A DNA stretch of 63,985 bases, filler included, from Catajapyx aquilonaris (taxonomy: Eukaryota), in the NCBI GenBank assembly GCA_000934665.2. It is 3 parts of 3 records of this genome, joined end to end, with 100 filler letters (N's around TTAATTAATTAA, not from the genome) between each part and the next. Parts side by side here need not be neighbours in the genome. Positions count along the whole stretch, not along the records: positions 43,073 to 63,985 come from JYFJ02006165.1; 2 more parts are not named here. One strand, 5' to 3'. The notes under the pieces were generated by a model that worked only from the letters and a program-made list of their open reading frames with translations, was not told where the DNA came from and searched no databases. Shown piece after piece: positions 42,973 to 63,738 of the stretch. The position numbers were made by a program, and so were the translations under genes. Within the stretch, counting starts at the first letter, position 1, and each line of letters opens with the position of its first letter.

Positions 42973-43072
42973 NNNNNNNNNNNNNNNNNNNNNNNNNNNN
43001 NNNNNNNNNNNNNNNNTTAATTAATTAANNNNNNNNNNNNNNNNNNNNNNNNNNNNNNNNNNNNNNNNNNNN
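42973..43072. other. Artificial contig-joining spacer (N44-TTAATTAATTAA-N44)
   Basis: Identical structure to the first spacer; preceded by a poly-G run. Confidence 0.97.
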
Positions 43073-43352
43073 GCAGCCCAGTCTTGTTTCAGTAATTTCT
43101 ATCCGTTACTTGGATCTTACTTTCCTTTTTTTTTACAATTCCGTAGGGAATTAGTTTTTGTGATAATTGGCATTTATGCAAGCAGAATGTAACTTATGTA
43201 AATGGATTCACTGACACAATTTTAAAAGCCTGGGAATATCATAAATGTTAGAATATAAAAACTTTCCAAGTGTGGTATGCCAGTTCTGTTCTATTATTAT
43301 TTTATTCTCACCTGAGTTCTTGTGTGGAAAACTTTGGTAACAGATCACGACG

Positions 43353-43433
43353 TCATGGCTTGGCCTTCACACGGGAGACACTGCATTTCTTCTGGAAACA
43401 CTGTAGCTTATTCTGCAAACCTTGTATAATGGG
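43353..43433 (-). CDS. CAP-D2-like: CAP-D2-like terminal exon 19
   Basis: ttccag|PIIQGLQNKLQCFQKK...KAKP* (~AIIDEFEQKLRACH); AATAAA on the - strand at 43301-43306. Confidence 0.78.
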   Translation of the reverse strand, partial: PIIQGLQNKLQCFQKKCSVSRVKAKP

Positions 43434-46400
43434 CTGGAAGGATTAGAATGATTAGAATGTAGGCTATCATAATAACATATGGCAGGGCATGTACAGAAAC
43501 AACCTAAACTCAACTAGATCAGAGAAGGGAAACCCGAGCTTGTGATATATTCGTGTGATATATTTCAGTATACAGGGTGTTTATTGTAACTGCAAAGACT
43601 TTCAGGGGTAATAGAGGGGACCAAGACAAGCATTTTCGACATAGGAACCCGTGTCCGGAAACGCCATCTAGAGGGGGTTCATAGACGAGGAACTGGTGTG
43701 CTCAGACGCGTCACGCGAGAGGCACTAGTCGAGAAGACTGTTTTGTTGATAGATGGCGAGCAGTTGTTGCCAGGTTATGGTGTATCGCGTCGTTGTAAGT
43801 CAACAACAACGCGATACGCCATAACCTGGCAACAACAGAACCGCTGTTGACTATCCGCGCATCTCCTAGGAGGCGGACTTAACTTGCTAGATGGCTCTGC
43901 TGTTGCCAGGTTATGCCACATCGCATCGTTGGTTACTATCCGAGCGCCATCTATCAACAAAACAGTCCGCTCGACTAGCGCCTATCGCGTGACGCGTCTG
44001 AGTGCACCCGTTCCTTGTCTATGAACCCCCTCTAGATGGCGTTTCCGGACACGGGTTCCTATGTCAAAAATACTTGTCTTGGTCCCCTCTATTACCCCTG
44101 AAAGTCTTTGCAGAGTTACAATAAACATATAGTCATTTACCCCAGGATCTTTCTGTAATATTTATAAGGCTAACTCTGGAGGTAGGTCTTGTTTACGGGT
44201 AGACCATAGGTACCCTTAACTAACATACGGGTACTGTACATTGACACTTAGTCGATTTTTTTTTCCTCTATCGCCTGGTGATGTCCATTTAGCCCTAAAT
44301 ATTCATAATGAGTCAGCAAGCCAGGATTTTCTGCGGTCACACTTGTGTAAGCAAGTTCAAGATCGAAATTAATCTTTGCTTTGGATTAACTCGAAACTGG
44401 TTTTTAGTGTATTTATATAATAAATTTATAAATTTATATAATAATTAATGTACGGCGATATAGAGCATTTCTCTTATAATGGACTACTATGTATATAATC
44501 ACTGTAGGAATGCTGCGGAATTAGATTGCTCACCATCGTGTCCTGTAGAAGTTCCAAATCAGCCTTCTTAGCCTTGTCTACGACAGCTGAAATATACTTC
44601 TCTACTTCTGGTTTGGTCAGTCGGATTTCCACACACCTGTCGAACGTGTTATGCAAGGCACCCAGAGAACTGAAACTGTGATTCAACTTTTGGAGGCAAT
44701 ATGCGATCATGACCCAGGCTGTTTCATTGTGGGACTTTCTCATTTCCTGGCATAAATTCCTCACCAGCAGGAGTCCTAAGTACTTGGGCCCATTGATCAC
44801 ACCACAGATAAAGCTGGAAGATGGATTGTGTGTGAAGCAGCCAAATTGCGATTGGAGGAAAGCAAAGTGATAATATAAAAATAAAAGATATAATATTATA
44901 CTCACTCCATTATCACGTAAAGTTGCTCGTCGGTAAGTCCCCGTTGGCATAGGCGAGGTATTGCACCAGGAAGCATGCTGGCCATAGTTGTAATTCTATC
45001 TCCAATTTCAACCAAAATCATCTCAGATGATTTGCGCAAATCGGAATCTACATCAACCAGGCACAGAAGTAGCTCTGACACCATACCCTGCTTTAGTCGA
45101 ATGGTACGCCCCATAATGAGCTCGCAAATGGTGCTGTGAACCTTCCTCCTCACACTGATTTGGTAAGATTTATTCTGCAAGCTGAAAGAATGCATTGATT
45201 ATTACAGGTGCACACATACATCAATATGTAATGAAACCTACATGTGGAACAGAGAGTTCATATGCTGCTCCATGCAATGTAAGTGGGCGTGTCCTAGCTT
45301 CACGAAGTATTCCAGAATTTCCATTCGAATTTTATGAAATGGACACATTCGAAGCATTTTCAACATGATCTGAAGATGAATAAAATAATGTAATTAGCTT
45401 CGACGGAGATACTGTATATACGTATATTACCGTGCCTTAAAAGTAAATAACCTTTAGGCATTAAATTCTTTTAAAGAATTTTCCCCAAAATGTAACATAG
45501 TCACACATTGGCCCAGCTCTTTACAAAAACACCATATCGATCGAATAATTTTCAAGCAGTGTTACCAAAATAATTTTGTAAGCCTAAGTCGAGCACTGCC
45601 AAACTTATTTCTTCGTCTCTTGGTCATGCCCTACCATGGCATTACTTAAACAGTTCACTATTGATCCATATTTCAGCATCCTTCTTACAATCCTGATGTA
45701 GTACTAGTCGTGTTTATTGTTATTTTTTTTTACATCTAAATAGCACATTTTTGTATGACTGTTATTGGCATCGAGCAACCGCTATGCTATACTGTACACT
45801 GTACAGTCGGCTCAAGGAGTATGTTACCAGACCCCTAACCTAGAAATTAGATTAGATTTCGGGGCTGAAGGTTTCCATACCTCCCAGGTTACTTTGTACT
45901 TGTCGTTTGAAGGCAATTATCTCAGTAACTATACTGTATACTGTATAGGCTTACAAAATATGACACCATAGTACTACGGCCGGGTTGCACTATCGCGTGT
46001 TTCTCTCAAAACGCCAGGGGCTCCTATTCTATGAGTAGGCCTATTAATTATTGGGCAACAAGAATACCTAATAATCCATCAATAATTATTGAGATCTCCA
46101 TTAGTATTCAAATACCTGGGCCATCAAGATTGGTTTTTTGGTAACATTCTTTTTAAATTAATGATATGGCTCAACTAATCAATAACTGTAGGCTACTGAT
46201 TTTTGAGGAGCAGTGAGATTACATTGCGTACATGCTAATTTTCAGAAGTTACTAAATAATCCTTTCCATTTCAAACGGAAATACTATGCTTGATCTTACA
46301 GCAGTTGAGCAACTCCTATTTTTATATTTGAAAAGAATCACATGAGACTTGAGACAAACTGAAGAATGCCAGAACATTATTTTATATCTCTCTCAGCATA

Positions 46401-49400
46401 TAATAGAGTGCATTCCCATTGAGGTGTTCGTTTCATTTAATGATTTTTCGCATTACGCTGCTCGGTAGGGGAGACCGGGTCACGATGGCTACAGAGGTAC
46501 GATGGCACTGTCAAATTTTTGAAGAGGCTATTAGGTTCATGGACATAATGCTTATGTGGTAGGTGCAGATAGACATGCTCCACATTACACCTTATTTTCA
46601 ATTCAATCGCAAAAGACTGTCGGCGGCAGTACCGATTTTTTCGGTTTTTGACCCGCATTTGAGTAAATCTGAATTTCTCGTAGTTTTTATTTTTTCTTCC
46701 AACTGAAGTGCTAGATCACTGAGCCCAATAATGCGTTTACAAGGCAGAATATCTGCCTACCAAATGACAGCATAAATGGCTATTTAATATTTGTCACTCA
46801 ACAGCAGGAGGACTAGAAAGGTTTTTTTAAAAAATGCCCATGGGGCACGATGGCACATTTTGTTTGGGGCACGTTGGCACATGTCCCTACCAACCTTGGC
46901 GCACCAAATGACGATTATGGTAGAGGTAGACCGCCTCTCCCCTGTCACTTATTAGGCCGGACCCATGCACTTTTCCCAGTTGCCCACTATTCTTGCTCCT
47001 TATAGCTAGCCCCAGGAGTTATTCTGCAGGCACGCTGTTATCTTGCAGGCAAAAAGTTCTGAATATCTTGTAACATCTTTGTAATATCTTGTAACTATAT
47101 GGATATGAATTGATAATGTGTGGGCGTCACGGTGGCCGAGCGGTTAGCGCCACAGCCTTCCACCTCTAAGGTCCCGAGTTCGATCCCCGGGTCGGACGGA
47201 GGATACTTATGTGGATAGAGTTTCGATGGGTTCTCTCCGTGTTCGCGTGGGTTTTCTCGGGGTTCTCCCGTTTCCTCCCACTATCAAAATCCATCACATT
47301 ACAGGCAAATGATTAAAGTCGGTCTATTAAAAGATAATCCCCTAAGAGGCCCAAGGGGCCTATCACGGGGTATCCATCATTAATTGATAATGTGTGTGGA
47401 AGTTATTTTAATATTATTTCATAAGCCTTATATTACTGTGCCAACATGCCCCATGGTGCCCCGGGCAAGGGGCACTACGGCACACTTGCAGAGGCTTTTT
47501 AAATAATTTATAGTGGATAGCATATTTAAAATGCGAACATGTGAAAATATCACATACCGGTACCGGTATATGCTCAAATGTCTAAAGTATTTATCAGTAT
47601 AAAAATTACAGTGAACTGGCCTCAGAAAAAAATTAAATGTAAAAATAATTGTGCCATCTAGCCCCGGTCTCCTTTACTAAGCAGTTTTTTATTTTATTTT
47701 GATGTTAACCCGTGATACAACTGTAAGCTGTTATAGGGGGGTGGCATACCACCATCAGTTTTCTGGTGTTTTTTCGACTTTTTTTCGCTCTCCAGTGCAA
47801 GGAATCAAGGATATAGGGTAAGGATAGGGGTTTTTGGGGAGGGAACATGGGTGCAAGTGCAATGTCTGTAAAGGGGTCAGCATGTGCTGTTCCCCAGGAG
47901 GTTAGGTTGCCAGGCACCTCCAAGGAGCCCCTGACGCGGGTGAAAGGGACATCCCAGGCAGGGATCGAACCTGGGACCTTTCAATCAGCAAGCCAAGATA
48001 TTACCATCTCTGCCACCACACCTCCCCCCTTACTAAGCAGCTAGTTTAGGGGTAGTCTAATCACAAAATATTATTAGCTGTTAATATTAGGTGGATCAAG
48101 CACATCATTTCAAAGCACGGAGGGAGGGTCTAACTCTAACCTGAAAAAAATCGCAAGGTTTTTTCAGAAGGAAATGTAATCTTGCTAGTTACCTCCATGT
48201 TTTCTGTGCAAAACTTAGGGGAATGCACCATGTATCTTAGATTCATCAGTGATGCAGCTTCCCAGACGACTAAGTTCTCGTACATTTTGGGCTGGTTCCC
48301 TAAATCCCACATGATCTTCCTGAAACATTAAAATAATGTGTATACTAATAATAATATGTTTCTAATCACAGGCAGCAACTGAAATAAAAAAGGCTCGTAC
48401 ATTATCCCAGTCTGGACAAGGCGGGATAGTGTCATCTTGCTAGGAAGCAGCCAATTGATGATGTCAGTCGTTTGTACATCACAGTCGGATTGTTTTGCCA
48501 TGTTGCAAGGGGCTTTACCCGGAGGTGGTGTGAGTACTTTCTTCCTGAGTTTGTCCCACAGTTGCCTGCTGAGAGGTCTATTACAATGCTTCGATCTCGT
48601 CTTTGGACATGAGTTGGTGCGCGCATCTATTTCCCCCTTCAACCTCTCCATCCGGTCAAGATGAAGCATGGCAATGCGAGACACCAATAAGATGAGATGT
48701 TCCTTGTGGGTTAGTGTCAACTCTTTAAATGATTTGACTTTCGCCATCACTCTTTTTAGTAAGTTCTCGCAGACCACAGTGGGATCCTTGGCCACCTGAA
48801 ATGTATATGGAATTAGTTATTACCCAAATGGAATGGAGGACCGTGGACTCGACATAAACGTATATTATATACTGTCAAGAGCTAATGATACTGTATATTG
48901 CCTGTATATTTGGCTTGGTTTCTATTGGTTAGAGATATTCCCATACATTGTACTTCAGTTGAAGTGTCTGTAGTGGTTAGAGTGGTTAGTAATTTTTTGC
49001 ACTAAGCTAATTACTTTTAAGCAGATTATTGGGAGTAGATACTTTTGGAGGTTGTCAAAATTATTAGCGGCTTAGAGTAGATTGAATGGATGATCCTTTT
49101 AACGAATGCAGATGGTCTAACGCACAGGCTCTGAACAGTGAGTTTAACCATGGACTTGGAGTATCAGTGGGTCAAAATGAGCATTTAGCAATGTCTCAAC
49201 ATTGGAATTACATTGAAATGCACAGCCTCAAGGGATGCTTCCATTAAACCGACAATCATATTACAAGCTATGGGTTCTCTTCGTACTCGGTGTGTTTTCC
49301 ATTTTCCTCCCACAAACAGAATCAATCACAGCACAATAATGAAAAAATATTAATATTGAAACGAGTATCCCCGATGAGCCCACATGTCTCTCAGAGAGTC

Positions 49401-52400
49401 ACCACCACCACAACCACCATCATCATCATCAAGTTTTTATGCCAGATCTAATCAAATGAAATGGAGTCAGTCATCCGTAAGGTGACGAGGGTTTGAATAA
49501 AGTTCAGGTAGACGAGAGTCGAGAGAAATCAGAAAACTGTCCAGACTATTTCATCCATCACTGCACCAAATGTGATTGCACCCCCTCCCCCCTGCCGACC
49601 TTTATGGGATCCAACTGCCATAAGGGTGACATGGGATATAAGGGGGAAGGGGGAAGTCGAAAGAAAAAGATGCAATAATTTATTATGACTTGCACTGCAT
49701 GGTTTATTCGATATTCTTCCTCCTAAGGCAACTGAGACACCTGCCCCATTGCTAGACGAAACGTCTGGCACAAAATTGTCCCTCGCTGTTGCCAACATAA
49801 GATTTCCGTGACAGCTCTCACGTCAGAGACATTCCCTGTATCAGATGTTTCGTCCAATAGTGGGGAAAGTGTCCCACTGGAATTGCCACCAATGACTACT
49901 GGAATGCATGATTTATTAAGTGTAATTATTTCACTTAATAAATCATGCATTCCAGTAGTCGTTAGTGCATCCTTTTCTTTTGCCTTCCCCTTCTACGCCC
50001 CATTTGGCCATGTGAGCACAGTCACTCAGCCTTATGGCGCTGGAGGTTGGACCCGATAATATCTGTGAGGGTGTTTCTTTGGGAATATCTAATGGCTCGC
50101 CTACCATTCTGGTATGAACCAAATTAAGAAAACTAGTAGATGTGATATGTCCAGATTTTACCATAACTTTACCTAAACTTTTTCGTAACCATGCCCGTAT
50201 ATCTGCGCACAGTTGACTGGCTCTATTTCACCTGAATGGACCCTTCAGTATACCTAAAAGCAGCTTACTTCCAATAAATCATTAACAACTTAGTTACAGA
50301 CACTTCATAATTATTGAAGCACTCTGCATAATGAACACTTGTTCACTATTTTAAAAATTCGTAGAATGGAATGACTAAAATAGACTGGTGTTATTGCTGC
50401 ACAGTCTTGTGTGAAGTTCTTGTTCACATTCTCACCTTCCATATTGTTGAGAGAATTGTCTGTATCATGGTGTTAAAACCTTCGGTTCCCTCAACATACA
50501 TGATCTTCTGAAGTACATCGCAAAGATGGATTATCACATCATGCAGTGCGTCGAACTTGGGCTGACCATGATCACCTTTGGGACAGCTGTCATAACGTGC
50601 ATCTAGAAGTGTCATTTTCGACAAAATAGTGCTCGTACAATGCACGAGAACGACATCCCTACTGTCACGCAGTCCAATTGACAAAAGATGAGAAAGATCA
50701 TGGACTTCAAGGTGATCTTGTGCCCTGAAAAATGTAAATCAGGTTTTAACTTATCCGCGTTTGCTCATGTTCTCAGGCCACACTGATTAACTGAAAGAGC
50801 AAAAGAACTGGGGAATACACTATGCAACAAAAATCAACATTTTTCTGCCCATAGAAATTCATCGCTATTTCCATGTTCTTCAGGTCACTCGTAACTCATA
50901 TAATAACAATTCATTTGTCTTCAATATTTGTTTTTGACCTTGGGGCAGTCGAAAAACTAAATTCCTCGAAAAATAGGGGTCATTCCGAATCAAGTGAACC
51001 GAAATGTTGCTCGACCATCTCGGATTTTGGTGAAATAAATCACAGATGCGCACACAACTGCATCTCAAGTTTCATCCTTATTGCGCAATACCGTTGGGAG
51101 GGGAAAAATCGATTATATGATATGACACGTTTCAAAAGACTTCTCTGCACCCCATTCATTGCACAAGGACACTTGGCCTTGGTTCCAACCTATTATTCAT
51201 TCAGTAGAGAAAAGCAGTTGGGTCATTCCAAATTAATTTAGTAAATTTTCGGAAAATTAGTGGCTTTCGAGTTTCGACCACTCCCGATATTTTTTTAAAA
51301 ATCACATGTGTAGGCATACAAGACATAGCACCAAATCCTAAATTTGACACTTCTGGAGTTATAGCACTGGAGTTATAGCTATAGGGACGACAAACTTAAC
51401 AATGTTGACGCCTTGCCATAATAATTATATTCCATTGTTATACCGTTTCCTGGTATACCGACATGATTTCAAATTACATGCCACGAAGGAATGAAATAAT
51501 ATTTCACAAACTATTACAAAAGATTTATTTTTAAAAATAAAACGCAGTTAACGCACAAATACAAAATACTCCACTATGCCTCGTAAATTGGACTGTGAGG
51601 TCACCAAAATGGGACTAGACCCAGTACTGTACAGCTCCTCCGCCATGATTTCCTGCTTTGTGGAAATTGACGACTGCTCCTCCTTTAACTCCTGAAGTAC
51701 AGTGTTGGTCATATATCGAGGCAACACCCAGCGACATTTTCCGAAGCGGCAGAAGAAGGAATCTTGCTCGCCCGGCTTGAAGTATCCTTATCTTCGATTC
51801 CTTCTTCTGCCGCTTCGGAAAATGTCGCTGGCAGTTGCCTCGATATATGACCAACACTGTAACCACCCCAGTGCAACTCCGTTATTTTCACATAGATTTC
51901 CCCCTCCGACCCCCGTGACTTTCGAGAGCCAAGTGGAGTCTTATCAGTAGTTAGGTAGGGTGCCGCATCGCTTGAGTTTGCGGCGCTTTTGTCCCGTTTT
52001 TTTTTAGTTCTCTACCCCAGAGCACTCCATCTTGTAAGCTAGTGGGAGAGGTGGGGGAAATGGGGGCATCCACGTTCTTATAATACAATAGTAATAATTT
52101 TCGCCGCAGTGAGGGGTCACGACATGCACTGTGGCGAGAAGAGGCCGAGTGGGACTCTGGACTCTGGAGATTACGCGATAAGGGGGCTATAGTTGCCCGA
52201 CCTGTATATACGAGTAATTATACACAAAAACTCCTCGTCCGTGTGAAGAACCTTCTCCACTTCTCTCCCAAATGGACCGCCGTCATAAATAGTGTACGTC
52301 ACTAACGTCAGGCTCACTTCCGGCGCGGCGCGTTCAAAAGTCGCGAATCTGCGTGAGTGAGGCCATGTCGTACGCACAAGAGCAGAACGTTGCATCGTCT

Positions 52401-54457
52401 CTACACTCGGGATCTAAAGCGAGTGTGGACATTGTAGGCCTACAGTTTGTCAGCCCTGGTCAGCCCTATAGTTCATTAACTCCAGAAGTGTCAAACGTTG
52501 GATTTGGCATCATGACTTGCTACACCTGCCATCTTTATCAAAAATATTGAGATTGTTTGAGCTATACATCCATTTCCTCAGGTGAGATGGAATGATTAAG
52601 TTACGTCACAATGAGAAACAATGTCTGTCAGCAATGAAGCTACAGTAACAATCTCTGATTGAATCAATAATCAATAATTACTCATCTCCATTTCTAATAT
52701 AATTTCATGAACATCAATTGGCAGGAAAAATGTATTACTTTTAGACTGAGACATGACCAATAATAATTATTGGTCATGTCTCAGTCTAAAAGTAATACAT
52801 TTTCACATAATTCACATGTTATGTTCACATAATTATTATGTGAACGCTTTTAGTCACACACAATACTGCCACTCCCTGCAGTCAGAAAATAGCTAGCTTA
52901 TGGTGGAGCCTCACAAATGTATGACTGTGCCTTACATCCTTGTGATTCAACAATATTATAAAGTATTATGCACTTACCGAGCGAGAATTCCTAACACAGC
53001 AATTGCATTTCTGCCATTCTGATCATCTCCATCACTGACCAAACACCACAGAAACTGTTCCAAAGAGACACAGGTGAGTATCGATCAAGCACGTTTGGTG
53101 TATCCGCAAATATTATTTTGGTTTCCACTTTTTATTTACCTCCACAAAATTACTGCAGAGGTCACCTGAAGCAACCAGTGACGATATTACAATGCGCAAA
53201 GATGTACACATTGAGAGGTCACACTCTTCAACGAGCTCACAGAAAATGTGGGCAAATGCACTGGCTTTTTCTCTGAAAAAAATAGATGTTTTATCGAAAT
53301 CGTATACTGGCACTGACATGTCTGACGCCAGTTACTGTGCACATTACAGGGTAGGAAAAATCAAACTACCATTGTCAGGGACACGGTCAGGGATGAAGAG
53401 GATGGGAGCAGGAGGGGCGAGCTATTGACAAAAAATGTCCCCCCTCCTGCCCCCACCCCATAATATTTTCCCACCAATCTAATCAATAATAATAACAATA
53501 ACAAAACTTTAATCATGACCATACCTGTAAATTAAGTTATGAGTGTTGGCCAGCTCTAAGAAGGCACTGGGCAAAACTGTACTGAGGATGTGCTCCGATC
53601 CATGTGCAAGAATTCTTCGGACTCCCCGATAGGCTGCATATATTCCTTGGTGTAGTGCAATCACGAGCAGGTTCATGGCTTTCGGTGCATTGTTGTCACT
53701 GTCTGACATCACAATGCTTGCTACCCTGGGCATTGCGTAAGAGAAGGTTCGCCTAAGAACCATCAAACTCTTCACACATTGCACTTTATAACTCAAACTC
53801 TTGCTGAAACAGTCTACACCAAGGTCTTCATTCTTTTCTTTCGATTCACAATGGAAGAACATGTGGGCCATCAGATGAGCCAACATGCCGCATTCCAACT
53901 CCACTTGTTTGTGGATCAGGTCATCGCTCCCCTCATCTCCGCGCTCTTCAAAGTCAGGATCCTTTGTGCCAACCTTAGGGTTATCTTTCTTGCCCTTCAT
54001 GTCCCTTTTACACTTATCACGTTCTGTGTCCTCATTGTTTGCCTTGTTCTTAAAGTCACCCGTATTAGTGATATCACCTGCCAATATTTTGGGGACTTCC
54101 CACATGTATAAGAACTTCAGGAATCTCAGAACACTAGGTTTCGACTTTGTGATCGTGACTTTCTCCGCTTCATTATAGGCACTTCGGTCTTCCTCCCCGG
54201 AATCGGAGGAAATGAACATCATCTCCATCCAACCCCTGCTGGGAAGAATGCATTCACTGACAAATCACATTGCAAATGACAATATAACAATGTACATGCC
54301 TAATTTCCGTGTTAGATGGGCAAGCTTCAGCCAGGATTCTTCCAACAACAGCTGCATCTTGGAAACGACCAGTTCTGAGCAGCTGAGTCGCAGTTTTCAA
54401 GGCAATATCCAAATTGTGAGGATTTTGTAGGTGTCTCCATTTTTCATTGATTGGTCC

Positions 54458-54539
<82 letters not shown>

Positions 54540-57500
54540 CACTGAATAATAATAATAATAATAATCACTGAATAATAATAATAATAATAATCACTGAATA
54601 ATAATCCCGAATTGAATAATAGAAAGGGTGCTATTAAAAGGAGATCGCGGTGTGACTCCGACTGTTTAAACTTACTTCTCGAGACAACGGGCATTAGTCT
54701 GTCCTTTCATCAACAAACTTGAAAGGGAATAGTTACAATCACGTTCTAAGAACAGTAAGGTCTGGACACTCCCCCTCTTATCGCCTTAGGAGCCTGACGG
54801 GGTGTTTTGCGGCAGGTGACCGCGTGATAGTGCTCTTCAGGACTTCGTAGACATGTGGCGACCCTACCTGACTACGCTGAACTTACTTGTTACTTACTTG
54901 TTAGGTAGAAGAGAAGCGCTTCTCTTCTCCCTAAGTTCAGCGCAGTCCGATAGGGTCGCCACATGTTTGTGAAACCCTGAAAAGCGCTATCATGCGGCCC
55001 CCTGCCGCAAAACACCCTGTCAGGCCCCTAAGGCGTATCGATGGGAGACCAGACCAGACCTTACTATTCTTAGACCGCGGTTACAATTCACACACACAAA
55101 CCCTGTTGGAAGTGTAGGGCAGAGGTTCCCAAACTTTTTGAGTCGCGGAGCACTTTTCAGGAGAGATATTCGTGACGGAGCACCAAGATCATCGAGCCGC
55201 GTAAGCAGAAAAAAATTCTGGGTTGGAGGGGGGAGGGGGAGCGCCAAATTAGTAAATTAGAATGGGAGGGGCGAAAGAGCGGTGCAGGCGAAAAATTTTT
55301 GGGTTCAAGGTCACACAAGCTACTGAGAGATTTGAATGGGTATAGCTTATTGAAGAATTCCTTTTTTTTCCCAACCTCTTCGCGGAGCACTTGGAAAAGC
55401 TTCGCGGAGCACAGTTTGGGAAACTCTGGTGTAGGGTATACTCATACTGTGTACTGAATAGACAATAGAGTATACTGTAGTGTGCGGTGTGACGCCAGTG
55501 CGGTATACTGTATACCGTACCCGAAATGTATACCCCTGTTCCCTTCATATTGCCTCATTCGTTGGTAATTTTTTTGCTGAACTGCCACAGTGCAGTGGCG
55601 GGTAACAGCGGAGGCAAGGATACGCGATGGTGGGTGGTTTATCGGACAGTAGTCCAGCAGTAGGAGAGGTATTTACCGTACTGTACCCCTGAACAAAGTG
55701 TTGTCTCCAAGCGGTTTCCTTGCTTGCAATTACCCGCCACCTTTAATATTATTCCATATCCCTGATATCACGCAGGTCTCCTTCATAGGCCCACCGCTGC
55801 CTATAATGCTTGCAGCACAATAAATTCAATGTTATGAATGAAGAAAGTACCGGGGCCAAAACTTGAATTTTAAGATCTTAAAAATCGAGCTAATGTTGAT
55901 GTCATGTGGGACCTGTCATGCTATAGGAGTACTTCTGATTTGTTAGGATGACTTCTACATTATTCGATCGAATGCTACTGCCTTGAATGGCACCCTGAAT
56001 ATATTTAGTAGTGTCTATTTCATAACCAACTGGACAGTGCACCGTCTCCATTTCTGGACTGACAGGATATAAGTTGCGTGTCAAATCAGGCTTGGTGGAG
56101 GAAGACGGGTGATGATAATATTGCTTGCCTTCATGTGCTCGCGTCCTTTCCAGGCGGAAATGGGCAGGCACAATATGATGCAGCATTGCAGCATAATTTT
56201 ACCCGAACTCCCTATGTGTTGGTAAAACAGTAGGTCTACTGTACCTACCTTTCATTGCATCATGAGAGTAGGAGAGGAGCTTCTTCTCTATTTCTGGCCA
56301 CTTCTTTATCTTCAGAGTGATATTTGGCCATATGGGGCATATTTCCCACTTATGCTTGCAAATGGTTAGCTTGCATTGGGCAAGGGATGGAACATCCTAG
56401 CAATTACAGTACAAAATACATTCTTGGCATATTCTTTAGACCAAAATTATTTGCAAATCCCGGACGGATCTGAACTCACATCTGCGTGGAGCTCACACTT
56501 TTGCGAAGGAGTCACACACTATTTTCGTGTGTGTCAACCCACTCTCCCTGCCCCGCCCGGGGATCGGAATCACGTTCTCAAAAATGTGACTCCCTTGCAA
56601 AAGTCTAAGCCATACGCAAATATGAATTTAGACCTAAAGGATGCGTGTTTACCTTTTCAATAGCAGCATATGTGTTGCAGACGCTCAAAAACACATTCAG
56701 TGCTGCGTCTCGAACAATGTAAGCCTCGTCAACCAATGCTTTTGCACTAACCCTTATGACGGATGCAAGGGAGGCCGCAGGAATTTGCCCATTGTTTAAC
56801 AGGGAGAGTATGTAATGTAAAACCTGCAACGTACAAAGTAAAGGTAAACTTAACGAACCTGTTGCATTATGGTAACAACATGAATTATTGGCGTACCCAA
56901 AATCGAATGATAAAAACTTGATCATTGAAGGAGGCCAACATTACTCGAAGGTAGTCATACAATCGCATTTGGTCAGGGTAGTTGACATCTTCGGGCCCTG
57001 GCTTCTGCGCGACTAGGTTGTACAGACGTTCAATCATGCGCCTCCGAATTATGTGGGACTAGAAAGAAATGTCACCAGTGAAACAGTTACACGACTGCTC
57101 AGGGACAATACCCAGTTGTGCCCCAAACTTACCTCTTGGTTCACTTCAGACAAGAAGTAACTCAGATTTCCTGTAACAGCTTCAGGATGAAGTTTGGAAA
57201 GATGTGCCAAGAACTTCATCAGCCTTTTATTTATGCGATCCTGGTCTTCGTCTGATGGAAGTGTATCTTGAGATACTAGGATCATCAACCTCATGAGCAT
57301 TATATTGGAATTGCACGGTTGAATGATTTCGTCTGTGAGCTTTACGAGAAACTGAGTCCAACGATGCGATTTCAGGATTGCTACTATTCGTTTCAAGAAG
57401 GAACTTTCATGTCCGTATTTCTGTATAAGAATGGCAATAGTTTTGGAAAGATATGGATGAACTTCTGTGTCGAGGTGGATGACACTGGTCTTCAAGATTT

Positions 57501-59612
57501 GGTACACAATGTCCCCAATATGCCTGAAACGATGCAAGTTAGTCATTCATCAAACCTTTCAAATCGGATAATTTTTGGCCAAACATGCACTCACTCCTGA
57601 ACGGCTGGTTCAACGACACATCCGGGCCACATCTTATCAAGAGGCAGCTCCAACAATTGAACCACTTGCTTCATAAGAATCAACCGTTTAGCAGACCATT
57701 CAGGATTAATCTTCGGTTCCCCCTGTAACAATATCTATTGCCAACATATGCACACTACAACATTGTACAGTAATGTTGAAAATCCTTTATCCGAAATGCT
57801 TGGGATCGGAAGTGTTTCGGATTTTGGAATACAGTATTAATAGCTAGGCTATCTTTACACCTGAAAATGGGACAGCCTTGGGATGGGACAGAGTCTAATA
57901 AACTACAGGTAATGAAGCTATACTGTCCGTTTATTTAATATAGAGCCCTGTGTTTGACTCTAAACAACTCCCAGGAAAATTATCCAAAAAAATAATGGCA
58001 TGTATCGTTAGAAAGCTTGTTTAAATCTACGTTACATATTATATGGGAGTTGTTTTCCTATCGTCAGTCTCTAATTTTTCATCGTAAAAAGAAGGCGGAA
58101 AAGTGTCATTTTTTGACTAGTTGCCCACGTTACACCGCAAAGGGGATTTTTATGACACTTTCAGGAGGCAAAAAATATCCCCCTGTGAACCCTAGATAGT
58201 GCTCATCTTTGTCTATCTAATGATATATTTGAAACATTGAGATCGCCATTTCTGTAATCATAATTAAGTTAATTGCACACCTCTGTTATCTCGGCTGTTT
58301 ATAATCCTAATTACTTCGCGAATGTATCGACGGCAAGCCATAAATGTGCGTGATAAGAATACATTGTGCTCTATTACACTAAAAATGTTAAAAGTATATA
58401 TTGTTTTAGTAAGTTTAATAGAAAAGGACCCAGCCCGCTTTCTGGCGGGAATAGACGGCGATACTTTTAAATACTTTTTTGTGTGTGTAATAGAGCACAA
58501 TGTAATCTTATCACGCACATTTCTGGCTTGCCGGCGATACATTCGCGAAGTAATTAGGATTATAAACGAGATATCAGACGTGTGCAATTAACTTAATTAT
58601 GATTACAGAAATTACGATCTCAATGTTTCAAATATGTCATTAGATAGACAAAGATGTGCACTATCCAGGGTTCACAGGTTGATTTTCGTGGCCTCCTGAA
58701 AGTGTCATAAAAAATTCACTTTGCGGTGTAACGTCGGCAACTAGTCAAAAAATGACACTTTTCCGCCTTCTCTTTACGATGAAAAATCAGAGACTGACGA
58801 TAGGAAAACAACTCGCATATATGAACCGTGGATTTAAACAAGCTTTCTAACGATACATACTGTCATTATTTATTTATTTTATAATTTGCCTGGGAGTTGT
58901 TTAGAGTCAAACACAGGGCTCTATCCTCTATATTAAATAAACGGATAGTAGTCATGATTCACTCTCATGAAATTATCAATTAGTGGCGCGTCATGTCAGT
59001 ACTCAAAACTTCCGAATTTTATCATTTCGAATCAAGTATCCTCAACCTGAGTGTGTTGCCTACCTACACCACTATAGAATAGTATAAGTTATATTTAACA
59101 TTACTGCAGCATTTTGCATGACACACTGAGTTTGAATTCTTGAGTGGACTCTTCAGTTTAACACTGAGCAGTTATTGTTGTATGGTCACTTTATATTTGA
59201 TTTGATTTGATTTGGTGCACAATTATTATGCATATTCCATGCCAGGTAGCCTACAGTACTTGTACTGTACTATTCAGGGTTATCCAAAACACTTGTCTGA
59301 CTAATGTGGCTATTAGCAGGAACTAAGCTGCTTATTATTAGCCAGTTACTTTCGCAGGGTTACTTTCAATAGTTATCACAAGTATTAGATGCTAATATTA
59401 GGTCAAGTGTATCTATTCTTTTTAAATCTTACAAAAGGGTCTGGCCATGCACAAATTCGATGTGAGATGCAAGTAATGATGGAAAAGTAACTGCTTAGTG
59501 CAGCTTAGTGCCAATAAATAGCCATATTAATCGAACAAGTATTTTGGATCAATCTGTGTATATGTGTAATGTGGGTATACGATATACACTATAACTACTT
59601 TTCGTATTTGAG

Positions 59613-59680
<68 letters not shown>

Positions 59681-62600
59681 GGCTGCGGCTGTATATCTAT
59701 AGTTAGTTTCTAAATAACCCCATTAACATTGTTGATTAATAATTATTGTTGCAGACATTACGCACGGATAAATCTTTGGCAGGATTATCTGTTACAGTCA
59801 TGTAGGACTGGTTGCACAATAATTGAAGATTTTACGATCGAGGATTTATCGTTGTTATTCACTGTTGAGATCAATTCCATTGGCCAATTCAATTCATTTC
59901 TGTATTGAAATCAATCTATACCTCAATTCAGGTCAATTCTAATGGTCAAGGAAATTGAATGGAAGCAATCATTCAATTCCATTTAAATAGGAATGCTATC
60001 AATCACAGTTCAACCAAATTCCATTTAAGTAAGAATGTTTTTCAATGACATAAATATTTCATTCCAATCATCAGTTTGGAAGTAAGTTAATGCCGAATTA
60101 ATGCCGAATTTAATTGTGCCAAATCAGTGCTTAATTCATTAGTTCTGAACCAGTGTAGAAGACAACCTGGTATATGAAAAGGAAAATAATATCATCCTTA
60201 TAATAATTATACCTGTGCATTAAAAAGAGGCTACTTACGTTATTTTGAGGAAAGAAACTTGTTGCAAATCTATTTTCCATCATTGGGGCCAGGTTGGAGA
60301 TGATGTAGATAGTCATTTTAATCGAGTTAAAATAGTTATATACTTCATCGGGTCTCCACCTTTCCTCTTTGTTCAAGTAATCTTTGTAGTCCGATATGAC
60401 CAGATCCAGAACTACAACATGAAATGACCAAGATGATTATTTTTCTACTACATTCTCTAGAAAAGGTAAGGGTACGCCACCACAGGTTCTTTTCAAAGCT
60501 TGCAATGCTGTGACAGGTCAATGATTCCAGAGCCGTAAAGGGGACCTGCGGAGACCTGTGTGGGTTTTTTTTTTTTTCTAGTGCCACGCAAAAGAACCAG
60601 TGATAGGGTCGGTCCTTCCTCTTCTCATCCAAGAGAACATGTTTAAATAGGATGTATTTTTCTGGAGATTTGTCATCTGTTCTGATGACAAACCTCCAAA
60701 ACTGTCTACACATACCTGTCCTTTCCACATTCCAATAGCGATGAACTAACTTGGTCGACAGATGGTAAAACTGTCGTATCACACTGTATAACACGTCGAA
60801 TCCATACAGTATGAAATGTTTTTCATCTGGACAGCTTTCGAAACCTAATAATGAAATTTGAAGCATATAATAATGAAACTTTCAAACGACCAAATTCATC
60901 GAAAGATGTCAACAAAGTGAAGAGCGGTTCACATGATGTGAACCACTTTGTATGATCACTCTTCACTTTGTTGACTATGACTCATCCATGAATTTAGTGC
61001 TGGAAGTGAGGCAACCATAGAAAACAGGTTTTTCTTTGGTATGAAAACCTTTACGGCTACCTGGTAATTGATTCGAATTTTAGTGCAACGGTACAACTTT
61101 CAATCAATTCAGATACAATCATTATCCTTAAATTTTTTTCACGATAATAATCAAAGGTGCCCTATATCGGATAGTAATTGCACTTGCACTGTCATTATGA
61201 ATATCGGCATCTACAGGGTTATTTAGAAATGGATGAAATGGGGAAAGAAGTTGCTGGAATAAATCTGGCAACAGGGCAGATTAAATTTTTTTACTGATTA
61301 TTTCTTGAATGACACTTTAGCCCGGAGATGATTTTACGCTTCTGTTATTGCGCACTTTGATGAAAGTGTAAAGTAATATTGCGTTCATAGAAATATGAGA
61401 TTGGGATAACCACACAAAAATACTTTTTTTTTCTAGCCTCAATTTCCGCCAAAGCTTTTGTTGCATTCGTTAATCGATCAAAACCGACACCAAATTTCAT
61501 TGCTTTGCGTTTTTCAGTCTGTACAAGTTTACGAGCATATGGGGTGGTGTCCCAGATATTCTGCTTATAACTTCGCCATTGGAGTATTTAGGGAAAGATG
61601 CTGGAGGAATGGCGCTTCCCAGACCCGGTGAAAAGGGCTCATACTTCAACATGTACTAAACAAAATAATACTAGCAGCAATTACTATGCTAGCATTTAAA
61701 AGCAACCAAGCATAAGTAAATGCTTGAAAACAAGCAACTTGGAGCAAAACAATCTTGAACTGAAACGGATGACGTACCTCAATTGGAACACACTGCATAA
61801 AACAATATTGGTATTATACGAGGGTAGAAATATTTCCAGTGACGGACCGTGACTCGCTTTGTAGCTCTGTTTGCTACATGCACAAGAGCCGGTGCAAAAA
61901 ACGATCGTGAAACAATTTTATAATAATTATTATTTGTAACTTATTGGATACAAGGATGGTGATGTTTAGTCTTCTAAATCTTTCCTCCGACAATTTTTGG
62001 TCCACACCTTGCACATAAACAAAAACGCGCGCATGACTGTACTAGGGTATCATACAGTTTCGACGAAACCTCCATACACATCTCGTCCAATGTAATCAAG
62101 ATAACAAAATTTTGTCCGAAAGATTTTTCGCCCAAATGACATTTGGTCCGAAATATTTCGCCTAATGATGCATTTACTCTGCAGTGTCACTGTATTCTCG
62201 TGCACCAGGCACGTTTTTGTCCAAAAAGTATCTTGTGTAAAATAATAATTCCTCCAAACCCAAAGACGCAGACGCGGGTAGACCAAAACGGGTTAGTCTT
62301 TGGACAAAAACATTTGGACGAAAAGATATTCGTAGTGTACGAGAATTAGTCCAAGGAAATGCATTTTGGCGAAATCATTGGACGAGATATCTTTGCAAGA
62401 AAATGATTTGACTGAATGGGTACGTAACCGTAATTATGTTCCAAGCATGTGAATTCCGTGCAAGAATGAGTCCTAATATGGAGTATTCAGACAGACACCG
62501 GTTTTTAGTCATTTAGCGCCGGAAATTTGCGAAACAATTATAGTAATACACAAAATCTTCCTAATTTGATGGGAAGGGTATTTTGATAGGTTTATTCCTC

Positions 62601-62960
62601 ACACCGGAAATGTACTCGGACCATTTCTAGCCTAGAAGTAAGTGGCACATTAGAACATTGAGAACAATTTTTGTTGGTGTTCTCATGTTTCACATGGTTT
62701 AGAACTATGGCAGTTTCCCGACATGCTTTGCTACTTGCACATGATCATTTCATCACATTAGATATAGCTCGGGCAGAGCTACAAACGACATAATTATGGT
62801 CCGTCACTGTGTCACAATGTGTCAAGTATAGTAGATACTCACTGGAAATGACGTCATTCAGTTCCCATTCGTCAAATTGACGAAATATCACATATGAGTC
62901 GTTTGAAGGTCCTGACATCCGAAGGTGCGATATGCACTTCGGGAATTTGAATTCCAACAT
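43353..62960 (-). CDS. CAP-D2-like: Divergent condensin complex subunit 1 (CAP-D2/Cnd1/Ycs4 family HEAT protein); complete 19-exon model, 1357 aa
   Basis: complement join of 62843..62960, 60716..60844, 60239..60411, 57595..57722, 57133..57523, 56897..57058, 56653..56823, 56249..56396, 54300..54456, 53525..54235, 53140..53272, 52978..53054, 50436..50724, 48401..48795, 48193..48319, 45242..45369, 44906..45181, 44534..44813, 43353..43433. Total 4074 nt, all phases compatible, no internal stops found. Collinear with remembered human NCAPD2: FDVLYSVIRQF~FDTIYSILHHF; GIYAAYRGVRRIL~GVPQALFGVRRML; IAYCLQKL~LAYCVSQL. Confidence 0.85.
43573..44127. mobile_element. Tc1/mariner-type MITE with TIRs of about 185 bp
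   Basis: TA|cagggtgtttattgtaactgcaaagactttcagggg... mirrored at about 43945-44127; right tip truncated. Confidence 0.8.
44534..44813 (-). CDS. CAP-D2-like: CAP-D2-like exon 18
   Basis: ttccag|...LVRNLCQEMR...IAYCLQKLNHS...; donor ATG|gtgagc. Confidence 0.85.
44906..45181 (-). CDS. CAP-D2-like: CAP-D2-like exon 17 (Cnd1 domain)
   Basis: tttcag|...SVRRKVHSTICELIMGRTIRLKQGMVSELLLCLVD...MLPGAIPRL; donor GA|gtgagt. Confidence 0.85.
45242..45369 (-). CDS. CAP-D2-like: CAP-D2-like exon 16
   Basis: cttcag|IMLKMLRMCPFHKIRMEILEY...MNSLFH|gtaggt. Confidence 0.8.
46465..47677. mobile_element. pogo-like non-autonomous element containing a SINE
   Basis: gtaggggagaccggg / cccggtctcctttac termini; internal ggggcacg(a/t)tggcaca repeats. 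Confidence 0.7.
47123..47381 (+). mobile_element. tRNA-derived SINE with 15-bp TSD
   Basis: A-box tggccgagcgg, B-box gttcgatccc, core gtgggttttctcggggttctcccgtttcctccca; TSD aattgataatgtgtg at 47108-47122 and 47382-47396. Confidence 0.88.
47685..48029 (-). mobile_element. tRNA-derived SINE with A-rich tail and 11-bp TSD
   Basis: Reverse B-box (gggatcgaacc at about 47961), T-rich run at 47685-47700, TSD ttactaagcag at 47674-47684 and 48030-48040. Confidence 0.8.
48193..48319 (-). CDS. CAP-D2-like: CAP-D2-like exon 15
   Basis: tttcag|...NQPKMYENLVVWEAASLMNLRYMVHSPKFCTENME|gtaact (~NNPGLYSNPDLSAAASLALGKFCMISATFC). Confidence 0.85.
48401..48795 (-). CDS. CAP-D2-like: CAP-D2-like exon 14
   Basis: tttcag|VAKDPTVVCENLL...LVSRIAMLHLDRMERLKGEIDAR; donor AT|gtacga. 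Confidence 0.82.
49894..49960. repeat. Perfect hairpin, 29-bp arms
   Basis: gactactggaatgcatgatttattaagtg-taattattt-cacttaataaatcatgcattccagtagtc. Confidence 0.9.
50436..50724 (-). CDS. CAP-D2-like: CAP-D2-like exon 13
   Basis: tttcag|...DLSHLLSIGL (~NLDTLVSIGL)...IQTILSTIWK|gtgaga. Confidence 0.82.
51700..51859. mobile_element. TA-flanked MITE
   Basis: cagtgttggtcatatatcgaggcaac...gaagaaggaatc and near-perfect inverse, arms about 64 bp. Confidence 0.82.
52727..52803. repeat. Perfect palindrome, 38-bp arms, 1-nt spacer
   Basis: aaaatgtattacttttagactgagacatgaccaataat-a-attattggtcatgtctcagtctaaaagtaatacatttt. Confidence 0.92.
52978..53054 (-). CDS. CAP-D2-like: CAP-D2-like exon 12
   Basis: aacag|FLWCLV...NAIAVLGILAR|gtaagt (~LLWER...VMLLGMMAR). 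Confidence 0.82.
53140..53272 (-). CDS. CAP-D2-like: CAP-D2-like exon 11
   Basis: tttttcag|REKASAFAHIFCELVEECDLSMCTSLRIVISSLVASGDL; donor GAG|gtaaat. Confidence 0.82.
53525..54235 (-). CDS. CAP-D2-like: CAP-D2-like exon 10
   Basis: Long open exon with a charged segment, then AMNLLVIALHQGIYAAYRGVRRIL; donor AG|gtatgg. Confidence 0.85.
54300..54456 (-). CDS. CAP-D2-like: CAP-D2-like exon 9 (GC donor)
   Basis: attag|...LDIALKTATQLLRTGRFQDAAVVGRILAEACP; donor AG|gcatgt. Confidence 0.72.
54458..54606. repeat. (TAA)n microsatellite with cactga interruptions
   Basis: About 27 pure units, then three cactga(ata)n units. Confidence 0.95.
54746..55073. mobile_element. MITE with imperfect TIRs of about 140 bp
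   Basis: ctaagaacagtaaggtctgg... / ...ccagaccttactattcttag. Confidence 0.7.
55120..55428. mobile_element. hAT (Charlie-like) MITE
   Basis: TIRs cagaggttcccaaact / agtttgggaaactctg; perfect 8-bp TSD gtgtaggg (55112-55119, 55429-55436). Confidence 0.9.
56249..56396 (-). CDS. CAP-D2-like: CAP-D2-like exon 8
   Basis: gctag|DVPSLAQC...KKWPEIEKKLLSY...K-G|gtaggt; open frame, phases fit. Confidence 0.72.
56653..56823 (-). CDS. CAP-D2-like: CAP-D2-like exon 7
   Basis: tgcag|VLHYILSLLNNGQIP...LVDEAYIVRDAALNVF...EK|gtaaac. Confidence 0.85.
56897..57058 (-). CDS. CAP-D2-like: CAP-D2-like exon 6
   Basis: ttctag|SHIIRRRMIE...FNDQVFIIRFW|gtacgc (~NYMMRNAVL...HDVNSFVRSR). Confidence 0.8.
57133..57523 (-). 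CDS. CAP-D2-like: CAP-D2-like exon 5
   Basis: tttcag|HIGDIVYQILK...KYGHE...FLAHLSKLHPE...VNQE|gtaagt. Confidence 0.85.
57595..57722 (-). CDS. CAP-D2-like: CAP-D2-like exon 4
   Basis: ttacag|GEPKINPEWSAKRLILMKQVVQLLELPLDKMWPGCVVEP; donor GA|gtgagt. Confidence 0.82.
57921..58950. mobile_element. Fold-back element of about 1.03 kb, almost entirely palindromic, TA-flanked
   Basis: ta-ctgtccgtttatttaatatagag... / ...ctctatattaaataaacggatag-ta; arms of about 470 bp with high identity. Confidence 0.88.
59613..59691. repeat. Compound microsatellite (ACT)n(GCT)n
   Basis: Directly visible. Confidence 0.95.
60239..60411 (-). CDS. CAP-D2-like: CAP-D2-like exon 3
   Basis: ttgtag|...YNYFNSIKMTIYIISNL (~HLNALKMNCYALIRL); donor AAC|gtaagt. 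Confidence 0.8.
60716..60844 (-). CDS. CAP-D2-like: CAP-D2-like exon 2
   Basis: attag|...HFILYGFDVLYSVIRQFYHL; donor CAG|gtatgt. Confidence 0.8.
62843..62960 (-). CDS. CAP-D2-like: CAP-D2-like exon 1
   Basis: MLEFKFPKCISHLRMSGPSNDSYVIFRQF ~ NCAPD2 MYEFHLPLSPEELLKSGGVNQYVV; donor A|gtgagt. Confidence 0.75.
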
Positions 62961-63540: not shown

Positions 63541-63738
63541 GAGGGGGGTTGGCCACGTTCGGCACTAGAGTCAAGTGCCAGTACAGGTGGCGCCTTACCT
63601 AGCGGGACAATTCTGAACCCTGTTGGTCGACTCAGATTGGCTGGAGTCGACCATAATGGTTCAGAATTTCCCCGCTAGGTAAGGCGCCACATGTAGTCGC
63701 ACTTGACTCTAGCGCCGAACGTGGCCAACCCCCCCCTC
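63541..63738. mobile_element. Small inverted-repeat element
   Basis: gaggggggttggccacgttcggcactagagtcaagtgc / gcacttgactctagcgccgaacgtggccaacccccccctc. Confidence 0.65.

Follow-up and report, generated by a model that had tools for sequence, protein, structure and literature searches.

CAP-D2 is generally treated as a conserved and essential part of condensin I. The protein is built from about 21-22 HEAT repeats that extend along nearly its whole length, and its Cnd1 domain is common to CAP-D2 and the condensin II subunit CAP-D3. Between HEAT repeats 18 and 19 lies the KG-loop, canonically KVKGQL or KVKGQV, whose conserved Lys-Gly pair contacts the W-loop of SMC4, as described in the available portions of two reports (PMC6591010, PMC8932526). 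In the first of these, as far as the available text extends, the loop is described as highly conserved, CAP-D3 included, and as essential in yeast, and human cells need it for chromosome binding; in both yeast and human cells, condensin depends on the contact of this loop with SMC4 for its ATPase activity and for loading onto chromosomes (PMC6591010). The disordered C-terminal tail of vertebrate CAP-D2 is given as 92 amino acids in the accessible part of the second report (PMC8932526).

Variation on this theme has been described. In insects, the condensin I subunits are all readily recognised according to the available part of the literature, and extra Cap-D2 BLAST matches have been tabulated for three of 12 arthropod species, namely Nilaparvata lugens, Nasonia vitripennis, and Solenopsis invicta (King et al. 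2019, supplementary table S10). These extras are BLAST matches, and the text copy of the table does not show legibly which of them the authors accepted as true duplications. An expansion of CAPD2, CAPH, and CAPG is described for Tetrahymena in the portion of that work at hand.

Herein we describe a locus of Catajapyx aquilonaris that is most probably an intact gene for a CAP-D2-type HEAT-repeat (“B-type hawk”) condensin subunit, in which the architecture has been kept but most of the sequence has been replaced. If the gene is indeed of the CAP-D2 type, we consider it likelier to be an extra, fast-evolving paralogue, to which we give roughly an even chance, than the housekeeping CAP-D2 of this species, which falls well short of that. 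The statement as a whole, that this is a CAP-D2-type gene and also an extra fast-evolving paralogue, is held tentatively, at somewhat less than an even chance.

Structure of the CAP-D2-like Gene

All coordinates refer to the window, which is the whole 63,985-nucleotide stretch of DNA that was analysed. The gene was rebuilt in silico on the minus strand, from an ATG at 62960 to a TGA at 43355-43353, as 19 exons that all join in phase. The 3996 spliced nucleotides encode 1331 amino acids followed by the TGA codon, and the 18 introns of this curated model, which range from 60 to 2823 nt, all carry GT-AG borders. The features of the locus are as follows.

43353..62960, minus strand: whole CAP-D2-like gene, ATG to TGA; 19 exons, 1331 codons (curated model, phase check, coding statistics)
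62960-62843, minus strand: exon 1; the start codon is the first ATG to follow an in-frame stop further upstream; peptide starts MLEFKFP
60844-60716, minus strand: exon 2
60411-60239, minus strand: exon 3
57722-57595, minus strand: exon 4, with the sole Cnd1_N match
57523-57133, minus strand: exon 5; 130 amino acids, seven helices predicted
57058-56897, minus strand: exon 6
56823-56653, minus strand: exon 7, with a faint Cohesin_HEAT match
56396-56249, minus strand: exon 8; good splice signals on both sides, no further support
54374-54296, minus strand: exon 9, the least certain; weak GTACAT donor, then a 60-nt intron
54235-53525, minus strand: exon 10, the largest; 236 full codons
53272-53140, minus strand: exon 11
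53054-52978, minus strand: exon 12
50724-50436, minus strand: exon 13
48795-48401, minus strand: exon 14, with the basic linker
48319-48193, minus strand: exon 15
45369-45242, minus strand: exon 16, where the Cnd1 domain is expected to start
45181-44906, minus strand: exon 17, with the Cnd1 match and the KG-loop position
44813-44534, minus strand: exon 18; helices past the Cnd1 domain
43433-43353, minus strand: exon 19; final 26 codons and TGA
43301..43306, minus strand: AATAAA poly(A) signal, 47 nt past the stop codon
54737..55082, no strand assigned: foldback (MITE-like) repeat in intron 8, outside the gene product; arms of 104 nt and 29 nt, each 86% complementary

An earlier note on this DNA had described 19 in-phase exons with a start codon, a stop codon, and a downstream AATAAA, and all of this was reproduced on the minus strand. 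It had also given a length of 1357 amino acids, which could not be reproduced and is replaced here by 1331.

The borders of the model are least sure across exons 8-10, and an alternative acceptor for exon 10 at 54256 would add seven amino acids. Exons 16 and 17 are separated by a 60-nt intron that preserves the frame and has three stops within it. An exon candidate at 54976-54898 with a better ab initio score was dropped because it sits within the foldback repeat, and a 36-nt candidate at 48040-48005 was dropped along with others, since the phase holds without them. Ab initio exon chaining, which yielded 32 exons, was set aside as predicting too many small exons. As a separate observation, the foldback repeat at 54737-55082 can mislead exon finding.

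Coding Status of the Locus

The coding frame contains no internal stops, compared with 98 and 87 in the other two sense frames. About 77 stops would be expected in 1331 codons on the basis of intron triplet frequencies, and none of 2000 shuffles was free of stops. GC3 is 0.51 in the open reading frame versus 0.40 for the introns, and the composition by codon position is of the coding type. Foldback repeats and microsatellites occur at the locus in introns only, leaving the exons free. Because the reading frame is open even though the protein has diverged so far from its family, we infer that selection has kept it open. These findings support the conclusion that the locus is real coding sequence and not a decayed pseudogene, in line with the earlier note, which had stated that the gene does not look like one.

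A subtler possibility is that the gene is a silent relic, either a duplicate whose divergence took place while it still functioned and whose expression ceased only lately, or a set of exons that is never spliced as modelled. Such a history would fit the weak donor at exon 9, the alteration of motifs that are held to be essential (see below), and the annotation of some extra Solenopsis Cap-D2 matches as ncRNA (King et al. 2019, table S10). However, neither a stop nor a frameshift is present in 1331 codons and 19 exons, where neutrality predicts the approximately 77 stops noted above. The coding-type composition, the retention of GT-AG in all 18 introns, and exons devoid of repeat insertions next to introns rich in them likewise make a silent relic quite improbable.

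Domain Matches and Family Assignment

Evidence on the identity of the protein comes first from Pfam scans of one exon each, with E-values corrected for 24,736 families. Exon 4 matches Cnd1_N (PF12922) at 57701-57618 over profile positions 87-114 of 164, with 15.7 bits and an E-value of 0.014 (curated cut-off 27), and the same scan gives no match to this family in exons 2, 3, and 5. Exon 17 matches Cnd1 (PF12717) at 45159-44944 over profile positions 35-106 of 162, with 22.9 bits and an E-value of 1e-4 (cut-off 26.4). Exon 16 matches none of the Pfam families at E<=10, and exon 18 is without a Cnd1 match. A faint Cohesin_HEAT match in exon 7 (E 0.17) corresponds to a type of HEAT unit that occurs in this class of hawks.

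The order of the two condensin families, Cnd1_N followed by Cnd1, and their relative positions are as expected for CAP-D2. Since the condensin family had been named beforehand, the chance of obtaining these two targeted matches is far smaller than the E-values indicate. We further take the protein to be collinear with human CAP-D2 from the first helix to the last, with no block missing or extra over the 19 exons. Presumably, the helices past the Cnd1 domain follow CAP-D2 rather than CAP-D3 in their alignment, as do several motifs of the middle region and the N-terminus. The likeness to CAP-D2 proposed in the earlier note is thus supported by the order and places of the two matches and by the presumed collinearity, but both profile matches in these exon-by-exon scans lie below their curated cut-offs.

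This last point bears on the possibility that the locus encodes an unrelated HEAT/ARM-repeat protein, whose condensin labels would reflect chance or a generic likeness among repeats. No Pfam match attains its curated cut-off, and the Cnd1 profile is not specific, as it finds matches in three of 14 prokaryote control genomes. The best PDB matches of exon 17 are designed HEAT-like repeat proteins, so its Cnd1 match could be generic. The ESM Atlas look-alikes of exon 5 are generic HEAT/ARM clusters. For exons 5 and 10, AlphaFold2 predictions from a single sequence contain only helices, at low confidence (mean pLDDT 54.9 and 48.3, respectively). Foldseek searches against the PDB return nothing at E<=0.001 and only generic helical repeats, with no condensin among the 46 matches listed of at least 500 at E<=10. 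Chance or generic likeness is nevertheless a very improbable explanation. It would have to account for two distinct condensin-subunit-1 families found in the right order, first in exon 4 and then in exon 17, for a Cnd1_N profile that matches in none of the 14 prokaryote controls, and for the collinearity that we assume across all exons.

An exhaustive HMMER search with exon 10, using a query of 243 amino acids that starts at the alternative acceptor 54256, identified no relatives at E<=0.001 among 1,835,955,588 proteins. In word-based searches, exon 5 likewise had no relatives, and the second (C-terminal) half of exon 10 had none at E<=10. Per-exon PDB searches with six exon queries found no solved condensin chains. 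Exon 18 gained no support from the PDB or the ESM Atlas, where a match to RNA-polymerase Rpb1 clusters showed low recognition and was taken as spurious. A literature search on Cnd1_N and PF12922 found nothing relevant. Single-exon searches have low power, and a canonical arthropod CAP-D2 that is split into 19 exons might fail several of them as well.

Assignment to CAP-D2 over CAP-D3 would follow from the Cnd1_N match together with a presumed alignment to human CAP-D2. A different B-type hawk might be encoded instead, with a fast-evolving CAP-D3 as the most plausible candidate and a PDS5/NIPBL-like protein as another. The Cnd1 domain, being common to CAP-D2 and CAP-D3, would fit a CAP-D3 too, insect condensin II subunits are described in the available part of the literature as fast-evolving and repeatedly lost, and the faint match of exon 7 is to a cohesin-type HEAT unit. 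We consider this reading improbable, because the Cnd1_N match occurs at the expected N-terminal position, the aligned regions appear to follow CAP-D2, and a length of 1331 amino acids fits the body of CAP-D2 minus its tail. Moreover, no exon matches the PDS5 or Nipped-B families in the exon-by-exon Pfam scans.

Proposed Replacement of Contact and Regulatory Regions

Within this putative CAP-D2 framework, several regions have been rewritten. The sequence KIRMEILEYFVKLGHAHLH is read at 45333-45277 in exon 16, which would hold the start of the Cnd1 domain, and LIMGRTIRLKQGM is read at 45120-45082 in exon 17. The latter exon is where we assume the KG-loop to lie, following the earlier note and a presumed alignment to CAP-D2. 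The corresponding position, 45099-45082, reads RLKQGM, and the canonical KVKGQ(V/L) is not kept. Exon 14 contains a basic linker (amino acids 963-999, window 48618-48508) at the place where an acidic stretch was expected. The 70 residues past HLDRMERL carry a net charge of +8, and residues 951-1000 include 14 K/R versus four D/E. In exon 10, a charged low-complexity stretch (amino acids 554-605, window 54075-53920) is followed by helices, GVRRIL at 53625-53608 among them. The reading frame stops 26 codons into exon 19, right after the last predicted helices, leaving no disordered C-terminal tail. Only two S/T-P sites are present in the 1331 amino acids. The peptides that the earlier note had quoted for two replaced blocks are present in the rebuilt protein, which also lacks the acidic stretch and the long tail that the note had described as missing.

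The adjoining PKN gene provides a reference for this divergence. One PKN exon yields 1422 matches, with top identities of 72-74% to insect proteins, and the CAP-D2-like gene is, by this sequence comparison, apparently far more diverged. Because the PKN neighbour is ordinarily conserved, the divergence is specific to the CAP-D2-like gene. The same identities also indicate that the protein collection holds no close relative of this species, and therefore isolation of the lineage explains part of the missing matches.

These considerations bear directly on whether the gene is the sole CAP-D2 of this species, that is, a housekeeping orthologue that has evolved unusually fast along with the SMC4 and kleisin surfaces it contacts. 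The full-length architecture and strictly maintained reading frame are what an essential gene would exhibit, and positive selection on Cap-D2 between Drosophila species is reported in the portion of that literature available. Lineage isolation and the weakness of per-exon searches as tests further reduce the weight of the missing matches. In contrast, the gene-specific nature of the divergence counts against a housekeeping role. The same is true of the ready recovery of all five condensin I subunits in all insects examined, as stated in the available text of King et al., and of the loss of a conserved, essential KG-loop that even CAP-D3 has in common, according to the accessible part of PMC6591010. 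On balance we find a sole, fast-evolving CAP-D2 possible but unlikely. Base rates, namely the readily recognised condensin I subunits of insects and the extra Cap-D2 matches in three of 12 arthropod species, lean toward the extra paralogue, but they are not evidence on this locus.

A Possible Second Condensin

The earlier note had proposed a paralogue that exists beside a canonical CAP-D2 and may be germline- or sex-specific. If the gene product is a CAP-D2-type paralogue, it would be expected to clamp the kleisin, as CAP-D2 and Ycs4 do, and, when no ATP is bound, to engage the head of SMC4. The parts that appear to have changed include the KG-loop, the start of the Cnd1 domain, the linker between the lobes, which is basic, and the presumably regulatory tail, which is absent. 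With RLKQGM at the KG-loop position and these other alterations, the contact with SMC4 may either have been lost or have been re-wired to a partner that diverged in parallel. The resulting complex would then have an ATPase gating and a cell-cycle control unlike those of canonical condensin I. We speculate that a second condensin is built on this paralogue, with co-diverged SMC4 or kleisin surfaces or paralogues, that its activity is confined to a particular context, for instance the germline, and that its D2-SMC4 gate is re-wired or abolished. In this full form, the proposal is a conjecture to which we give a rather low probability.

A naturally maintained CAP-D2-type protein that lacks the KG-loop would offer a test, provided by nature, of how much change the gate between hawk and SMC4 tolerates. 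If the gene is instead the sole copy, it would demonstrate that routine detection can miss an essential condensin subunit once its sequence has drifted far enough, which matters for surveys of condensin presence and absence. These implications are moderated by the extra Cap-D2 BLAST matches already tabulated for several insects, and by the fact that function is read here from sequence alone.

Comparison with Known Condensin Systems

The protein resembles canonical CAP-D2/Ycs4/Cnd1 in the length of its body, in its all-helical prediction (at low confidence), and in the order of its Cnd1_N-like and Cnd1-like regions. It also has a charged low-complexity insert in mid-protein, at the place of the “proboscis” region described in the available portion of PMC8932526. 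It departs from the canonical proteins in several respects: neither domain match reaches its cut-off, the Cnd1 domain cannot be recognised where it should begin, RLKQGM replaces KVKGQ(V/L), the linker is basic, and the disordered tail is absent. Furthermore, no solved CAP-D2 or Ycs4 chain was found with any of the six exon queries.

CAP-D3 likewise belongs to the HEAT-repeat hawks and contains a Cnd1 domain, and it is described as fast-evolving in insects in the part of the literature at hand. The KG-loop is conserved in CAP-D3 also, according to the accessible text of PMC6591010, making the change seen here unusual for either family, whereas the Cnd1_N match, together with the presumed alignment, would favour CAP-D2 for this locus.

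Further parallels are the insect extras named “condensin complex subunit 1-like.” These are further CAP-D2-type sequences that have not been studied functionally, and strong divergence occurs among them, as in N. lugens with 39% identity. However, they were found with the Cap-D2 of their own species as bait, and thus are still recognisable and known to coexist with a canonical copy, while the divergence of the C. aquilonaris gene appears to be deeper.

For nematode condensin I-DC and the expanded condensin I of ciliates, paralogy, partners, and function have been demonstrated, as described in the available parts of those reports, whereas the C. aquilonaris gene is known from its sequence. Both systems offer precedents in which diverged subunits form a second, specialised complex. 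If a canonical copy coexists with the gene described here, it would represent an animal case of a condensin I subunit in a specialised complex, beyond those of nematodes and ciliates.

Gene structure and coding status

We examined a CAP-D2-like gene, a candidate for a condensin HEAT-repeat subunit (B-type hawk), in eukaryotic DNA with a G+C content of ~42% and introns rich in repeats. Ab initio chaining of exons, scored by an in-house codon and splice measure, called too many small exons, so the final model was curated by hand, with exon phases and the DNA around doubtful borders inspected. The main features of the locus are listed below.

Features of the CAP-D2-like locus
62960 to 43353, minus: CAP-D2-like gene, ATG at 62960, TGA at 43355-43353, 19 exons, curated in silico model
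54374-54296, minus: exon 9, whose donor is poor, before a 60-nt intron
43306, minus: poly(A) signal AATAAA, downstream of the stop codon
54458-54605: microsatellite (TAA)x47 in intron 8
59613-59660: microsatellite (ACT)x16 in intron 3
43590-44113, 51698-51861, 54737-55082, 58040-58821 and 63543-63734: five foldback (hairpin, MITE-like) repeats, arms 66-169 nt, 86-97% complementary

The model has a coding length of 3996 nt, every junction is in phase, and all 18 introns are GT-AG (8 of 60-92 nt and 10 of 252-2823 nt). An earlier note on this DNA had given the same exon number, ends, strand and poly(A) signal, and its quoted peptides recur in stop-to-stop minus-strand frames; however, its protein length of 1357 aa was irreproducible, and the curated model yields 1331 aa. 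Exons 8-10 are the weakest region of the predicted model. Exon 10 has a possible alternative acceptor at 54256, and a better-scoring candidate exon (54976-54898) was dropped because it lies within foldback repeat 54737-55082, which also carries 29-nt outer arms. The filler joins between records (21302-21401 and 42973-43072) each consist of two 44-N runs 12 bases apart; the second begins only ~280 nt past the stop codon, and the 3′ UTR context is thus incomplete.

The chosen frame contains no internal stops, whereas the two other sense frames contain 98 and 87, and ~77 would be expected in 1331 codons from the triplet frequencies of the gene’s own introns. None of 2000 shuffles was stop-free. 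G+C at codon positions 1-3 (0.49, 0.33 and 0.51, versus 0.40 in introns) is of coding type, and the exons are free of the foldbacks (four intronic, one upstream; one imitates a well-scoring exon) and of both microsatellites. These results agree with the earlier note, in which the gene is intact and does not look like a pseudogene. As far as sequence alone can indicate, the locus appears to be a real, maintained gene. Long neutral decay is unlikely, because all 19 exons have stayed open in a protein so distant from its family, although expression may have been lost very recently.

Family assignment

All 19 exons were scanned individually against Pfam (E<=10), with E-values corrected for 24,736 families even though the family had been named beforehand. 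Exon 4 matches Cnd1_N (15.7 bits, E 0.014, profile positions 87-114 of 164; cut-off 27) and exon 17 matches Cnd1 (22.9 bits, E 1e-4, profile positions 35-106 of 162; cut-off 26.4), both below cut-off but in the order and relative positions seen in CAP-D2. For exon 7 there is a faint resemblance to Cohesin_HEAT (E 0.17), and unrelated families match exon 17 (two) and exons 5, 13 and 18 (one each) at E 0.03-0.14. No Pfam family matches exon 16, the expected start of the Cnd1 domain, at E<=10.

A weak Cnd1 match alone does not indicate condensin, because PF12717 also matches 3 of 14 prokaryote control genomes (Bacillus subtilis, Methanocaldococcus jannaschii and Methanosarcina acetivorans), in two of them above cut-off. 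Given these matches, and given that the best PDB matches of exon 17 are designed HEAT-like repeat proteins, the exon 17 match may be generic. Cnd1_N is found in none of the 14 control genomes. Low-confidence structures were predicted for exons 5 and 10; a Foldseek search of the PDB with the predicted fold gave no significant matches, and ESM Atlas searches with exons 5 and 18 gave nothing informative.

We take the protein to be collinear with human CAP-D2, block by block, across all 19 exons, N-terminus and post-Cnd1 helices included; CAP-D3 presumably fits worse. A CAP-D2-type identity is probable, on thin formal evidence. Strict membership is not established; the two defining domains are matched only in part, the KG-loop departs from the canonical form, and the tail is absent. 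The protein would function like CAP-D2, if it acts with condensin at all.

Divergence and a conservation control

Searches with single exons, which are weak queries and uncalibrated against a canonical arthropod CAP-D2 split exon by exon, recovered no condensin chains from the PDB (phmmer, six queries). With the largest exon as query (243 aa), no match at E<=0.001 emerged among 1,835,955,588 representative proteins, and no relatives were retrieved when exon 5 or the folded half of exon 10 (the latter at E<=10) was used in word-based searches. An exon in a different record served as the control.

12286-12609, plus: PKN-type kinase exon (HR1/REM-1 repeat), 1422 matching proteins

Its best matches are 72-74% identical, mostly to hexapod serine/threonine-protein kinase N. 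Because this exon is conserved, the divergence appears to be specific to the CAP-D2-like gene rather than genome-wide. The same control indicates that the collection contains no protein from this species or a close relative, so the blank searches say little about sister-species orthologues.

Other features of the window

Two plus-strand frames (29036-29365 and 33699-34334) are open and resemble what we take to be two parts of a MIDEAS/TRERF1-type co-repressor gene, ELM2/SANT and the C-terminal zinc finger; along the window, this candidate lies tail-to-tail with the CAP-D2-like gene, in a separate record. A tRNA-Ser(GCT)-like sequence (20688-20761, plus; Rfam tRNA 31.2 bits against a cut-off of 29; ARAGORN calls it too) is flanked by single-N and 44-N gaps and may represent either a tRNA gene or a repeat derived from a tRNA. 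GC skew stays positive (0.08-0.24) over ~22 kb (2000-24000, spanning a record join), and a G+C-rich block (0.54) at 21600-23250 has, on both strands, long proline-rich open frames that overlap. Low-complexity DNA, repeat DNA or a large gene might account for this region.

Functional motifs and a possible mechanism

The accessible parts of two reports (Hassler et al. 2019, PMC6591010; Kinoshita et al. 2022, PMC8932526) describe a KG-loop between HEAT repeats 18 and 19 (KVKGQL in yeast, KVKGQV in human) that is highly conserved, CAP-D3 included, contacts the SMC4 W-loop, and is indispensable for viability, for ATPase activity and for binding to chromosomes. In the CAP-D2-like protein, the position provisionally aligned to it, following the earlier note, reads RLKQGM (45099-45082), which retains one lysine and one glycine, unpaired. 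Also unlike canonical CAP-D2, the Cnd1 start block is KIRMEILEYFVKLGHAHLH, and only two S/T-P sites occur in the whole protein. The losses, described in the earlier note, of the acidic stretch and of the long disordered C-terminal tail both hold: the linker after HLDRMERL is basic (14 K/R versus 4 D/E in residues 951-1000), and the protein ends 26 residues into exon 19, whereas the vertebrate tail is given as 92 aa (PMC8932526, in part).

We infer that the protein, as a B-type hawk, would bind kleisin and, while no ATP is bound, dock on the SMC4 head. Given the changed KG-loop and the missing tail, the SMC4-head contact might either have been lost or have been re-wired to a partner that diverged alongside it, which would change the gating of the ATPase cycle and loading.

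Relation to known condensins

If the gene is of CAP-D2 type, we lean, from prior knowledge and at roughly even chances, toward a diverged extra copy over a sole fast-evolving orthologue, which we consider rather unlikely. The portions available of King et al. 2019 (PMC6759200) state that all condensin I subunits were readily detected in each insect examined. In their table S10, 3 of 12 arthropod species have additional Cap-D2 hits, the acceptance of which as duplications is not readable there: Nilaparvata (39% identity), Nasonia (83%) and Solenopsis, which has several, part of them with an ncRNA annotation. Diverged CAP-D2-like hits in insects have already been tabulated (PMC6759200, table S10, seen in part), with their function unstudied, and specialised condensins are known, from the sources available in part, in nematodes and ciliates.
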